A DNA stretch of 64,000 nt from Eledone cirrhosa (taxonomy: Eukaryota): the NCBI GenBank assembly GCA_964016885.1, contig OZ024741.1, positions 413,044,001 to 413,108,000 on the forward strand, read 5' to 3'. The notes beneath the pieces are model-generated. The model saw nothing but the letters and a program-made list of their open reading frames with translations. It was not told the origin of the DNA and did no database searches. Made by a program: the position numbers and the translations under genes. Shown in pieces: positions 38,396-62,272 of the stretch (positions are counted from its first letter, which is position 1; every line of letters starts with the position of its first letter).

Positions 38396-39030
38396 AGAAA
38401 GTGAGGGTTTTTTTACAAAATGAAAAATAACCGAGGTGCCCTACACGAGTGAAAGTATAAAGAAAAAAAAGAAGAAATCGAAAATGCAACTGGAGTCTTA
38501 TTTAAAAAAATATATATATATATATTTATTTGGTTCCTTTACCGGTTTCGCAGTTCTTCTGCTTTTCAAAAGTAGAGTTGAGATGGAGAGTCTGTGGTTT
38601 TTCTCACATCTGGTTGGTCTTTGAATGTTACTTGTTTTATATGGAAAAAAGTGGCTCGAAACGCCAGGTTTTTAGAGAAGTAATTTGATTGGTTGGTCAA
38701 TAATTATAATAAATTTCGCGTTACAAAGTTCTTCAAACAGAGGGGGGGGGGTCAGGTTATTTTTTCATATATGAGTGTTTGAATTTCTTTTTACTTAAAA
38801 AAAGGGCCCACGAAGGCTTTTTTTAATAAACCTAATTTGATTGGTTATAAATGAAATTATGGCTGTCACGTGAACAAGCTTTCATTAAATTTCGCGCCCG
38901 TATTTGGAAATCTATTCTGTAGCCTTTTTAGAGAATTTTATAACCATATTCACTGAACCAGAACAATTCTCCCATCCCATTTCTCTTGACTATTAATTAT
39001 CTTTTGCTTGTAATATTTTTTTTTTCTTTA
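38396..39030 (-). mobile_element. Non-coding Penelope-pLTR-like element with hammerhead
   Basis: Bounded by (TA)n; minus-strand HHR at 38537-38572; promoter-like motifs upstream; shares TTGAGAT(G/A)GAG.GTC.GTG with ~41866-41885. Confidence 0.55.
38537..38572 (-). ncRNA. Minimal type I hammerhead ribozyme (UUGAAAA core variant)
   Basis: Minus strand: CUU-UUGAAAA-GCAG(AAGAA)CUGC-GAAA-CCGG-UA^AAG; stem III is the palindrome ACCGGU; U3:A8 replaces C3:G8. Confidence 0.7.
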
Positions 39031-39213
39031 TATATATATATATATATATATATATATATATATATATATATAAGATTAAAATACTTGAGTGCGTTAGAGT
39101 TAAACACACTCGTCGTATTAGAGAAATGACAGTATAAGATATAGCTCAATGTAATCCAACAGAGCCGAAAAATTATAAAAAATAAACAAAGAAGCCTTCA
39201 ATACATCAAAAGT

Positions 39214-39270
39214 CTTTATTAGCTGACAATGTTTCGTCCCATTAATAAGGACTCATCAGAGCAAGTAAAG
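39214..39270 (-). ncRNA. Minimal type I hammerhead ribozyme in Penelope pLTR
   Basis: Minus strand: GCU-CUGAUGA-GUCCU(UAUUAAU)GGGAC-GAAA-CAUUG-UC^AGC; stem I extends imperfectly (UCUUUACUUGCU / AGCUAAUAAAGA). Confidence 0.8.
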
Positions 39271-40746
39271 AGACAAGAAGCATTAACGGCGAGAACAAGC
39301 CAAAACTCAGAAGAACAGGGAATTTATATCTATGAAATCTTAGGAAAGACATCATGGAAAGACATGCTAAAGCTAAAAGTGTGCATTTGCAAATATAGAC
39401 TATAGGGCAAGAGAGCGAGTAATATATCAAACCCACGTTGAAAGAACAATATAAGACAAATACATGAAACACAACATAGTAATACAATATGAGAATTATA
39501 ATATGATATAGAATACAATATAATGGATAATAAGAAATAAAAAGCTTAATATATATGTATATATATATATACATATATATACACATTTACACAAACACAT
39601 ACTAACACTTATTTAAATATTTAAATATAAGTATACTCGTTATAATATAATAATCATTATAATAGCATAATCACCCTAACAGTGTGCATAAACAATATCA
39701 AAAACAGTGGAATAATATACTGACATTAAAAAATATATAAAACTACATCATACGTATCATTTAAGGTCAACAAATTGTATATAACGTTTTTCACAGGGTA
39801 AGAAAAAATATCATATAAAAATAAAGTATGGTGAAAAATATATATAAATATATATAATATTGACAATAAATATACAGAGGTATAGGCAGTTCAAATTCAT
39901 AAAATATTACAAAACAGTACCTCAATATCGGACATGTATATATAATTCAATTACATAAAAATAATGACATATTAATGTATATATTACAATAGCAGACACA
40001 CAGAATCAATGGAAAATGCTTAAGACATATTTACGCGATGTATACAAATAGACATATCAGGAGACAATAACAAATGATAGGACAACAGACAGCATGTGGT
40101 AGTAAAAAAATAAATTAAATAAAACGAAGAACAAAAACAAAAACAAGCACAGACACGTAGGCGTTACAAGTCATTAGGTAAATATAGATAATATTACTAT
40201 TCTGAATCAAAGAATTAAATTGAAAACCTTATTAAATTAATTAATACTAAAACTGTTTAAAAGACATTATGGGTCACTTCATATGGAATAAAATTTAAGT
40301 CATCAAAGTCGAATAAAATCAAGATATTTCAATAAGAAAGCTAAAAGATCTATCAAGATATATTACGATCCGTCCAGACGAATTACGTTATCAAGGAAAA
40401 AACTCTAAATAAAACTATGGTAGACCAATGGGAACAGAAAGAAGTAGAACTATGGAGGGTAGGAAGGAGCATAAAAGTAAAAATTTATATATAATCAATA
40501 TAAATTGATTATATATAAATTTTATATATAATATTAAATATAATATTATTTTCATCCCAACCAGGGATGAAAATAAAGGTAGAAACTTATAAGGTGACAA
40601 TGGTGAGTAAAAATGTAATAATGGTTAAGATGATAGATAGGGTAAGATAGCTAAAAAGACTATGAAAACTAAAATCGAAAAACCGTAGAAAACCAATAAT
40701 GGTAATAATAATGAACTCAAACCAAAGTGATAAGGTAATATAGCAG

Positions 40747-41160
40747 CTAATGGATACGGTTTAAACTACCAGAGCTTTTAGGTCTATAATAGAAGAAGGA
40801 ATTAGAAATAGCATGCGGACAGGAAGAAAATATTTCAGATTTTCTATTAAGCAATACGTTCCTAGAGAAAATTATAGAGTGGGTCTCAAGGATACAAAGA
40901 ATACAGGATTTAGCGTGTGTTGAAAGGTGATTAGAGTGTGCTACTATACGCCAATTTAGGCTATATGGTATACCAGCCCCTTTTAAATCCCAGATATGGT
41001 GTGCTAAAGAAGTAGAGTTCTTAAACTTGATATGCTTAAAATTAGAAATATGTGAATTAAACCTAGTTTTAAAAGTATTAGATGTGGAGCCTATATATGT
41101 TCTACAAGAAGAATTAGTCTTAACTTCACATGCATAAACAATATTCCTAGAGAATATTGT
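40747..41160 (-). pseudogene. Penelope-type GIY-YIG endonuclease, C-terminal ORF fragment
   Basis: NIVYACEV...TYIGSTSNTFKTRFNSH...SLAHHIWDLK...W.I...CILCILE...LLNRKSEIFSSCPH; typical PLE endonuclease motifs; truncated at the 5' side by the inverted pLTR. Confidence 0.85.
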
Positions 41161-41345
41161 CTTATATTGTTCTTTCAACGTGGGTTTGATATATTACTCG
41201 CTCTCTTGCCCTATAGTCTATATTTGCAAATGCACACTTTTAGCTTTAGCATGTCTTTCCATGATGTCTTTCCTAAGTTTTCAAAGATATAAATTACCTG
41301 TTCTTCTAAGTTTTGGCTTGTTCTCGCCGTTAATGCTTCTTGTAT

Positions 41346-41402
41346 CTTTACTTGCTCTGATGAGTCCTTATTAATGGGACGAAACATTGTCAGCTAATAA
41401 AG
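41346..41402 (+). ncRNA. Minimal type I hammerhead ribozyme (inverted pLTR copy)
   Basis: CTGATGA 41357-41363; stem II GTCCT/GGGAC; GAAA 41381-41384; GUC cleavage triplet ending 41391; stem I GCT/AGC. Confidence 0.8.
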
Positions 41403-41501
41403 ACTTTTGATGTATTGAAGGCTTCTTTGTTTATTTTTTATAATTTTTTATAATTATATATATATATATATATATATATATATATATATATATATATATA
41501 T

Positions 41502-60250: not shown

Positions 60251-60400
60251 GTATATATATATATATATTTATGTAATAAACAACATAAGATAATTATTAA
60301 CTATTAATCTCTGTAACCTACAGAGAGCACTCTTTTTTCCTGGACCTTTCCGACGGAATTACTTCATTCACACACACACACACACACACACACATATATA

Positions 60401-60452
60401 TCCATGCAAGCGTGGAAGATGGACGTTAAACGATGATGATGATGATGATGAT
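60401..60452 (+). mobile_element. RTE-type 3' tail stub
   Basis: CCATGCAAGCGTGGAAGATGGACGTTAAAC(GAT)n. Confidence 0.6.
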
Positions 60453-60465
60453 ATATATATATATA

Positions 60466-60690
60466 GTATAGGAGTCGATCGACTTTCGTCAAATCGGACC
60501 GAGGGAACAATGTTTCCGTTGGTCTTTCCAATTGCTAATACTATCTATCGGTCGCAACTCCAGGTAGAAGGAGCAACGTGAAATAAAGTGTCTTGCCCAA
60601 GGACATAACGCATCACCTGGTCCAGGAATCGAACTCACAACCTTATGATTGTGAATCCAATTCTCTAACCACTCAGCCACACGCCTTCAC
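60466..60690 (-). mobile_element. tRNA-derived CORE-type SINE
   Basis: Minus strand: GGCGTGTGGCTGAGTGGTTAG (A box), GAGTTCGATTCC (B box), GTCCTTGGGCAAGACACTTTATTTCAC. Confidence 0.75.
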
Positions 60691-60911
60691 ACACATATAT
60701 ATATATATATATATATATATATATATATATATATATATATATATATATATATATGTATGTATGTATGTATGTATGTATGTATATGTAGGAGGTGAGTTTT
60801 ATTGAAAGTACAATAAAGCAATGCAGCTATCGGATAAGTAGCACTCTATAGTTTGTAGGACTGGAGTATAAATAATATATAAGATCAAAAGATGGTTAAA
60901 AGAGTTCCATG

Positions 60912-60982
60912 TATTTTATTATGCGCATTTCAAAAACAAATATCATCATGCGATGACATTTGCGTTTTCGTCAGATAAAATA
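60912..60982 (-). ncRNA. Type I hammerhead ribozyme
   Basis: Minus strand: UAUUUUAU-CUGACGA-AAA(C)GCAAAUGUCAUCG..UGAUGAUAUUUGU(U)UUU-GAAA-UGCGCA-UA^AUAAAAUA; perfect 8-bp stem I; palindromic stem III. Confidence 0.85.
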
Positions 60983-62272
60983 GGGAGACATGATATGAAG
61001 GTTAAAGAACATTGTGAATAGTGCAGTTTTAAATCAACATATGAAAAGTAGTTTTAGATTGATGTGTGATTTTGGGTAAAAAATGAGGGGGGTGGGGTGG
61101 AAAGGATCAAAAAGAGGAGGAGATGAGAGTAAAGAATGGAGGGGGAGGAGTATAATAAGGAAGGATGAGATAGGAGGAGAGATGGGTGATAGAGAGAGAG
61201 AGATAGCTTTTATAACTGAGAAAAATATATTGTTTTACATAGAGAGGTTGAAAAACCGTTGGAAGATAATATATAAATTAAAAGAATTTGAAAATTAACG
61301 AAGAGAAAAATTTAAGAATAATGTTAAATTAAGGTTTGTATATTGAAGGGTTTAATAATATGTGCGATGAAAAGAAATTGTTAATATGTATTAAGAATAA
61401 TATTAAGTTAAGGTTTGAATATTGAAGGGTTTAATAATATGTGTGATGGAAAGAAATTGTTGATATGTATTATAAAAAAAAAAATAGTAATGTAATTAAG
61501 GATATATTGTGAAAAGAAGTAGAAGAGTGGAAGAATTATGAATTTAGAGGAATTAGTTAGTATTTAAGTTTGTTTTTATGTAATGTAATATGTATGTGTA
61601 ATATATGTAAATAGTTTGTTTACAAATGAGCGCAGAAAGCAAAGAAGGTGATAGTGTTTAAGGAGAAGACCTTAACATCAAAATATGTATCTTTATGAAG
61701 TATTTCCTAATGGTAATAATATAATGTAATAAAGGAGATTAGTTAGGGTTTAAGTTTGTTTTTATGTGTTGTGATGTGTAATATGTAGAAGTTAGACGAG
61801 CATGAAATGGAGAAAAAATAATGAATTGAGGATAACGTCAAAAAAAAAAAATGTTTATGTTTGCGAAGGATTTTTCAAGGTGATACTATAAAGTATTTTA
61901 AAGGGTAATAGTAAGTTTCATGGCCAGTGATAGGATGGAAGAAGGAAGAGTGGATATATTGTGGTGAGTAATAATGAGAATTGAGAAGTATCTAGGAAGA
62001 AAAGGTACAGATTAGAGGTTAGAAATTAAAAGAAAAAAGGAAAAAAGGAAGAAAGGGAAGTGATAAATAGGAATTATATAGAATGAGTAACTAGTATTAT
62101 ATAATGTATAATAAATAACATTGAAATAAGGTAGAAAGATCGGTATATTTTAAAAGAAATATATATATATATATATATATATATATATATATATATATAT
62201 ATATATATATATATATATATATATGTGTGTGCCTTTGAGAAAAAGGATCTTAAATTGGTAAAGTATTAGATA

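Follow-up and report, generated by a model that had tools for sequence, protein, structure and literature searches.

The question raised by a 64 kb stretch of the Eledone cirrhosa genome (G000:C2:413,044,001-413,108,000, hereafter the window; genome size 3.0 Gb) is what the many hammerhead ribozyme motifs in its second part belong to, and whether they form the dense special cluster that an initial annotation had seen in them. The explanation favoured here, to which a probability of about two in three is given as a whole, is that the hammerheads lie at the ends of Hydra- and Neptune-type Penelope-like elements (PLEs) and in retrozymes without an open reading frame (ORF) that are likely copied by a Hydra-type enzyme, that insertion would be guided by a tail hairpin and primed on both target strands, and that the window would be a TA-rich sample of a genome-wide hammerhead load.

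The motifs were sought with a type I descriptor in which the core contains C3:G8 or U3:A8, stems I to III are scored and bulges are allowed; a stricter initial descriptor, which found 3 motifs only, was replaced by this version. Between 38 and 64 kb there are eight matches (38537-, 39213-, 41345+, 42660+, 50300+, 51312+, 58258- and 60912-), whereas 60 block-wise dinucleotide shuffles of the same region averaged 0.07 and never exceeded 1 at a score of at least 20, so that a similar density is not seen in shuffled sequence. A ninth motif, at 44027+, misses the descriptor solely through a U10.1·U11.1 mismatch and is a hammerhead by direct reading of the sequence; the mismatch is common to 15/15 fetched copies of its family and is frequent among published Hydra-clade hammerheads. 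All nine motifs listed as intact in the initial annotation are thus accounted for, the cleavage sites predicted after 41391, 42716, 50382 and 51399 agreeing with the descriptor and that after 44072 with the reading of the sequence. An Rfam scan of the window returned no hammerhead model among 72 matches at E<=10. The type I core (CUGANGA, GAAA and UH) is found together with three helices, with departures from this core in families D and F. Sequence analysis confirms the window motifs as real type I hammerhead motifs.

The imperfect copies fared less uniformly. That at 49712 is decayed, as had been said, but those at 41823 and 43084 are family-fixed core variants and not products of decay: family D has GCAA for GAAA at 41823-41861 and family F has CCGUCGA or CCGACGA for CUGANGA at 43084-43171, each fixed family-wide with the stems still paired. 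The copy at 48255 was not confirmed, GAAA being missing both in the window and in the sole relative with the core. Two half copies, at 41502 and 48446, are indeed the 3' halves of family CJ, which has an intact U3:A8 motif at L027, L028 and L079, whereas the supposed half copy at 50800 is the start of a 591-nt unit.

Beyond the window, the genome was sampled in 99 evenly spaced stretches of 10 kb. The true core gave 105 matches in this sample and five permuted decoy cores gave 0-4, and the 3-8 pair was C3:G8 in 93 cases, U3:A8 in 12, U3·G8 in 0 and C3·A8 in 3. The earlier statement that stems differ in sequence while pairing is kept, with many families present, is borne out by covariation across 34 families: positions in the stems that the descriptor leaves free are paired in 29-33 of them where permutation means are 13-16, with I.3 paired in 33, 15.3-16.3 in 32 and 10.4 in 23, and G10.1-C11.1 present in only 8. 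Compensatory changes occur in the stems and at the 3-8 pair, and the covariation of the latter argues for selection on catalysis. Perfect palindromes make up stem III in 63/113 matches as against 2/50 shuffle matches (palindrome filter off); cleavage as a dimer is therefore predicted, which such a stem III is known to fit (PMC4209133; review PMC6765202).

The 105 sample motifs compare with 3.0 in shuffles and correspond to 1.03 per 10 kb (95% bootstrap 0.68-1.44), which extrapolates from the 99 stretches to about 310,000 motifs in the genome (200,000-430,000). An exact whole-genome count of one tight sub-pattern returned 107,584 occurrences against 207 for a reversed control; in the sample this sub-pattern has 30 matches, of which 24 are descriptor hits, and it covers 24/105 of the sample motifs. 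The 3' half of the 51317 motif has 7,696 exact copies in the genome. Published hammerhead counts are 126,247 for axolotl and ~5,000 for mussel (PMC7229834) and ~9,000 for Xenopus (PMC4209133). With an axolotl genome of 28 Gb, the density is roughly 100 motifs per Mb here and about 4 per Mb there, a roughly 25-fold difference.

By carrier, six of the nine motifs are 3' ends of Hydra- or Neptune-type PLEs, two belong to ORF-less retrozymes and one has no parent found. Each of the three remnants of GIY-YIG endonuclease or reverse transcriptase (RT) has a same-strand motif 1.1-1.5 kb downstream, as had been noticed. The companion claim that the remaining motifs have no ORF holds for families K and L, but those at 38537 and 42663 represent the ends of PLEs that have an ORF, truncated at the 5' side: the Hydra-type ORFs of other copies are colinear with E (42663) and G3 (60912), and a Neptune-type ORF with A (38537). 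The motifs at 39214 and 41346 are both real, but they are the two arms of one insertion and not separate elements. In the full PLE ORF of family B, RWR, DKT, CxCX5C, CxxC and CxH can all be read, which are marks of the Hydra clade (PMC8557442 section 11); E-linked ORFs have DKT and CxCX5C, the G3 ORF has CxCX5C, and G2 is linked by tblastn similarity only. The GIY-YIG remnant of family B in the window has a Pfam E of 3e-4, and a Pfam search with the long Hydra-type ORF gave no match. Families B, E, G2 and G3, which all combine a 3' hammerhead with (TA)n insertion, are by these motifs and similarities Hydra-type PLEs. Family A has an ORF upstream in 20/30 loci, and its colinear ORF shares ~50% identity with the L195 protein, in which a CX2-5CxxC linker is present; the Neptune label rests on this linker motif, and Nematis may be an alternative. 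For CJ, H, D, F and the 49712 family, no parent ORF was found within the 234-965 nt of shared upstream sequence.

Tail classes were assigned by alignment to anchored families, and 9/12 of these show two modes of tail length, measured from the predicted cut: short and long tails measure ~57 and 150 nt in B, ~55 and 140 in E, ~57 and 152 in G2, ~53 and 135 in G3, 84 and 145 in A, 16 and 98 in CJ, 15-28 and 89 in H, 281 and 375 in K, and 164 and 220 in X2, with no bimodal tail resolved in families D, F and X1. In family L the ends are fixed at +74-85 and +241-247, typically +80 or +245, each after AATGTAT. Head-to-head insertions combine one long with one short end in 52/55 scored pairs (10/65 pairs were left unscored), the exceptions being 2 long-long pairs in families without resolved tail classes and 1 short-short pair. 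In family L the combination is found in 16/16. Under an independent draw of ends, about half of the insertions would be expected to show it. That a tail is present at one end only was already known (PMC8557442, PMC3846280). Either arm may be the longer one, and in five insertions of ORF-linked families (L203, L112, L215, L230 and L119) the short-tail arm extends 94-1631 nt further upstream than the long-tail arm, so that neither arm copies the other. In vitro, a Poseidon PLE has two start sites and extends the target on both strands (PMC11167929). From the unequal arms and this two-strand, two-site extension we infer that each arm of a head-to-head insertion would be a cDNA primed on its own, the two being joined by microhomology.

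A conserved bulged hairpin follows shortly after the short end; it consists of RCUC, a stem of at least 3 pairs closed by a variable loop, a U-Y bulge of 2 nt and GAGY. It is present in at least 40% of the long tails in 14/40 clusters as against 0.4% of shuffled tails, and most short 3' ends fall 5-14 nt before it. Strict matches between 38 and 64 kb lie inside hammerhead tails in 8/8 cases. Pairs were counted from anchors, since MAFFT could not align the variable loop: the outer pair in 15 representatives is A-U in 9, G-C in 4 and mismatched in 2, and the inner pairs alternate between C-G/U-A and A-U/G-C, inner pairing, but not the variety of pair types, having been a selection criterion. The hairpin goes with Hydra-type ORFs, whereas downstream of Neptune-linked motifs it was found in 4/32, 1/24, 0/14 and 0/13. 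By eye, the same hairpin can be recognised in the published consensus tails of Hydra-2_Amil (coral) and Hydra-2_Ajap (sea cucumber). Families K and L also carry it (50004, 50664 and 50894), and it is the sole link found in their sequences to a PLE clade. It is the best candidate for a protein-binding signal.

Families K and L fit the class of retrozymes lacking long terminal repeats (non-LTR retrozymes): both are dispersed, have no ORF and are arranged in tandem, and every unit holds a single type I hammerhead. The longest stop-free frame in the 659-nt unit of K is 48 amino acids, and an upstream RT proposed for K in L186 was rejected, its ORF lying on the opposite strand. For L, a PLE ORF was found upstream in 0/30 fetched loci, several of which overlap. 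Its top copies are at least 99.8% identical (0-1 base differences over 581), and its arms, whose 5' ends are arbitrary, span between 0.13 and about 8 units. A relative at L145 is 70% identical across the full 591-nt unit and keeps the arrangement, so that the lineage of the 591-nt retrozyme is old. Other tandem hammerhead arrays in the sampled stretches L046, L069, L268, L272 and L067, with periods of about 310, 556, 311, 482 and 467 nt, indicate that more retrozyme families exist. The proposal of a multi-family set of ORF-less RNAs linked to PLEs accordingly stands for the 591- and 659-nt units, which share the Hydra-type hairpin, but not every ORF-less piece is a non-autonomous family. In sequencing runs X1, X2, X3 and X6 the 591-nt unit occurs under three organism labels with three shared base differences. 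It forms one closed contig in run X1, where the 659-nt unit gave none; the four runs are of unrecorded kind and not readable as expression. Contigs of run X3 have loose ends in (TA)n at 50888, 51053/51055 and 50653, matching the 3' ends of K and L.

The following sequence of events could account for these insertions. The RT-GIY-YIG protein would bind the hairpin and likely cut both strands of (TA)n, and each freed 3' end would prime RT, one start lying 5-14 nt upstream of the hairpin and the other, mostly in a stretch rich in UA, 40-100 nt downstream of it. Both cDNAs would stop independently and be joined by microhomology into head-to-head arms. Read-through transcripts would be cleaved by the hammerheads to unit RNAs, which would become circular, and copying round the RNA circle would give arrays of 0.1-8 units; arrays that exceed one unit and have free 5' ends are compatible with either a circular or a multimeric template. 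The ORF-less retrozymes would likely be copied by the Hydra-type enzyme. The predicted cleavage is probably dispensable for single insertions, since core-altered families were amplified and hammerhead mutants of PAc, the Poseidon element of Anolis, still inserted in vitro (PMC11167929); it probably serves the making of unit RNAs over the long run.

Could the window instead be a special local hotspot of ribozyme elements? Its 8 motifs per 26 kb are about 3 times the mean and it lies 3.2 Mb from the contig end, but at least 8 motifs in 26 kb arise with a P of about 0.06 on resampling of the 99 stretches, 8 of which hold at least 4 motifs per 10 kb, and 200 kb of window flanks contain 22 motifs. 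Counts follow the number of TA runs (rho 0.43), with 0 motifs in the 16 stretches without them. The density is hence high and not exceptional, and a hotspot is hardly credible; the further claim that the elements accumulate in (TA)n is upheld, the motif-bearing elements being inserted there. The inverted insertions have another possible origin in self-priming or fold-back of one strand, with one tail trimmed by an endonuclease and the hairpin acting as an endonuclease or resolution signal and not in priming. Such fold-back was proposed from junction palindromes (PMC3846280), the tail has been ascribed to endonuclease resolution (PMC8557442), and H and CJ are mostly near-perfect palindromes turning at the hammerhead. 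It also predicts the pairing of long and short ends, which taken by itself is expected equally from fold-back with endonuclease resolution, so that the unequal arms alone discriminate. The five insertions with sequence unique to each arm would require later flipping, which recombination between inverted arms could bring about in the spacer, and the two tail ends have been mapped to RT start sites (PMC11167929); fold-back is on balance unlikely.

It is also conceivable that the tandem units are local satellites from PLE terminal repeats, spread by recombination or by linear multimer copying, with no circular RNA and with largely inactive hammerheads. Linear multimer templates are compatible with the data, the mutants mentioned above still allowed insertion in vitro (PMC11167929) and only 1/9 Xenopus retrozyme dimers cleaved. 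However, the arrays are nearly identical across many scattered loci, with the 3' end fixed in (TA)n and the 5' end free, which marks them as products of retrotransposition; the L145 relative keeps the arrangement of the whole unit, and the 3-8 covariation implies selection on catalysis. Together these points leave the satellite origin improbable. Several further points weigh against the hairpin-guided priming of PLEs and retrozymes on two strands. The families with GCAA or CCGUCGA cores were amplified nonetheless, and computed monomer folds of several motifs differ from the hammerhead fold. The 14 hairpin rows include one, L184, that is a CJ copy in the neighbourhood, Hydra-1_Amil is by eye without a clear hairpin, and the consensuses of Hydra-1_Obim and Hydra-1_Ajap stop before its position. 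Among the fetched loci K and L have no BLAST similarity to ORF-bearing PLE ends, so that their PLE partner is assigned from the hairpin alone, and the family loci were a non-random draw from top search matches.

The element classes, namely Hydra- and Neptune-type PLEs, minimal hammerheads and non-LTR retrozymes, are already known, and Hydra-1_Obim of Octopus bimaculoides, with a hammerhead and a (TA)n preference, is in the supplement of PMC8557442. As in endonuclease-bearing (EN+) Hydra-clade PLEs (PMC8557442), RT is followed by GIY-YIG, with DKT, RW(K/R), CxCX5C and CxxC/CxH, a 3' hammerhead, a (TA)n target, tandem or inverted arrangement and an optional tail. Unlike in the accessible account of that clade, the unit is about 4.3 kb (direct-repeat spacing 4.27 kb at G000:C1:203.68 Mb) where <3 kb is the norm, tails are 56-165 nt instead of 30-40, and copy number is very high, with many families and the tail hairpin. 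The short palindromic stem III, the U3:A8 variant, the many families and the truncated copies with mostly single or opposite-strand paired motifs are shared with minimal type I hammerheads (PMC4209133), which are reported there at about 2,000-9,000 per genome as against at least 107,584 here for one sub-pattern; the scarcity of G10.1-C11.1 is a further difference. Metazoan non-LTR retrozymes (PMC7229834; bioRxiv 10.64898/2026.07.22.740005) likewise consist of ORF-less tandem units of low GC with one type I hammerhead each, dispersed as monomers to multimers. In contrast to these, K and L, known here from DNA alone, have a PLE-type hammerhead (one with U3:A8), (TA)n targeting, head-to-head arms and two fixed 3' ends, and are tied to a named PLE clade by structure and not by sequence. 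PAc (PMC11167929) resembles the present elements in that two internal starts bound the tail, both strands are extended and the target is AT-rich, but it belongs to another clade and starts in an AC-rich stem-loop without target homology, whereas the ends here often coincide with stretches rich in UA and lie on either side of a covarying hairpin.

For PAc, the available text of PMC11167929 does not report that both start sites are used within one insertion. No description of the tail hairpin was found in the literature searched, the word 'hairpin' having 0 occurrences in the accessible part of PMC8557442, and the word 'ribozyme' is absent from the Octopus vulgaris repeat annotation (PMC13282606). 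Neither hammerhead motifs in such numbers, nor a hairpin common to several phyla and to retrozymes, nor the joint use of two starts was found in print, although Lünse et al. 2017 or Repbase may cover octopus hammerhead variants. A more far-reaching proposal, put forward tentatively and at somewhat less than even odds, is that the bulged hairpin of Hydra-clade PLEs from corals to molluscs would be an undescribed recognition signal of a telomerase-like RT, positioning two primings, one per strand, and that it would be parasitised by circular, protein-free retrozymes which keep only hairpin and hammerhead, giving about 300,000 motifs here, a number above every count in the publications consulted. 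The origin of inverted, tailed PLE insertions (PMC8557442 section 15) and the enzyme that moves animal retrozymes (PMC7229834) are given as open questions in these sources, and the three-phylum hairpin, the two mapped ends and the very young 591-nt unit provide a small defined substrate for both. If even a fraction of the motifs is active, self-cleaving RNA could affect many host transcripts.

Hammerhead-bearing elements and fragments of the window (positions are those of the window)
Element	Position	Strand	Features
Family A	38395..39028	-	Neptune-type PLE end, 5'-truncated and 5'-inverted; U3:A8 hammerhead 38537-38572, predicted cut after 38540, long tail to 38395
Family B	39073..41454	-	Hydra-type PLE, head-to-head
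Family B, long arm		-	GIY-YIG remnant 40747-41156; hammerhead 39213-39271
Family B, short inverted arm	41157-41448	+	Hammerhead 41345-41403
Family B, tail hairpin	39144..39165	-	Bulged
Family CJ	41505..41639	+	Inverted fragment; 3' half of U3:A8 hammerhead; tail hairpin 41568-41591
Family D	41703..42065	-	Inverted fragment resembling family A; hammerhead-like 41823-41861, GCAA
Family E	42125..42860	+	Hydra-type PLE end, 5'-truncated; hammerhead 42660-42726, predicted cut after 42716; tail hairpin 42776-42795
Family F	42932..43216	+	Short-tail fragment; hammerhead-like 43084-43171, core CCGUCGA
Family H	43967..44163	+	~200-nt palindromic fragment; hammerhead 44027-44079 (U10.1·U11.1), predicted cut after 44072; hairpin 44100-44118
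Old repeat	47994..48346	-	CUGAUGA present, GAAA absent; hammerhead not confirmed
Family CJ	48376..48565	+	Head-to-head half copy; tail hairpin 48494-48517
49712 family	49683..49839	-	Decayed hammerhead near 49712-49775 (A9G); relatives keep CUGAYGA and tail hairpin
Family K	49868..50759	+	ORF-less 659-nt tandem unit, head-to-head; hammerhead 50300-50387, predicted cut after 50382
Family K, hairpins	50004-50039, 50664-50699		
Family L	50800..51479	+	1.15 units of ORF-less 591-nt retrozyme; unit 50809-51399; U3:A8 hammerhead 51312-51408; hairpin 50894-50954
Family G2	58197..60251	-	Decayed Hydra-type PLE; ORF remnants 59948-59377; hammerhead 58258-58312; short tail
Family G3	60790..64000	-	Hydra-type PLE; ORF remnants 63998-62291; hammerhead 60912-60982; long tail, imperfect hairpin 60843-60867

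The short-tail partner arm of family G3 lies just outside the window (L021:1868-1938). Family H was considered as a fixed palindromic unit and rejected, its junctions being variable and copies with longer upstream sequence existing. In families H and CJ (43967-44163 and 48376-48565) both arms usually end inside or just before the hammerhead, which suggests that the hammerhead fold blocks RT and so gives palindromes of ~200 nt. The Hydra-type ORF at L201-L203 contains long Asn/Ser-rich inserts between the RT thumb and the endonuclease, which recall the N-rich inserts of rotifer Penelopes (PMC3846280).

The remainder of the window is made up of satellites and other mobile elements. Positions 1-34,544 are a large CAC-rich satellite of ~50-bp period and strong strand skew that extends upstream of the window, and further simple satellites lie at 34790-36360 (72 bp). 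Mobile-element fragments patchworked between (TA)n runs follow the large satellite. A long interspersed nuclear element (LINE) at 54887-58080 (-) encodes an apurinic/apyrimidinic (AP) endonuclease and RT, with a 728-amino-acid frame at 55718-57904 and (TA)n on both sides, and fragments related to it are found at 44664-45489. An internally deleted mariner-like element occupies 48780-49652, with inverted ends of 108 bp and a Mos1-type helix-turn-helix remnant (Pfam E 1e-3).

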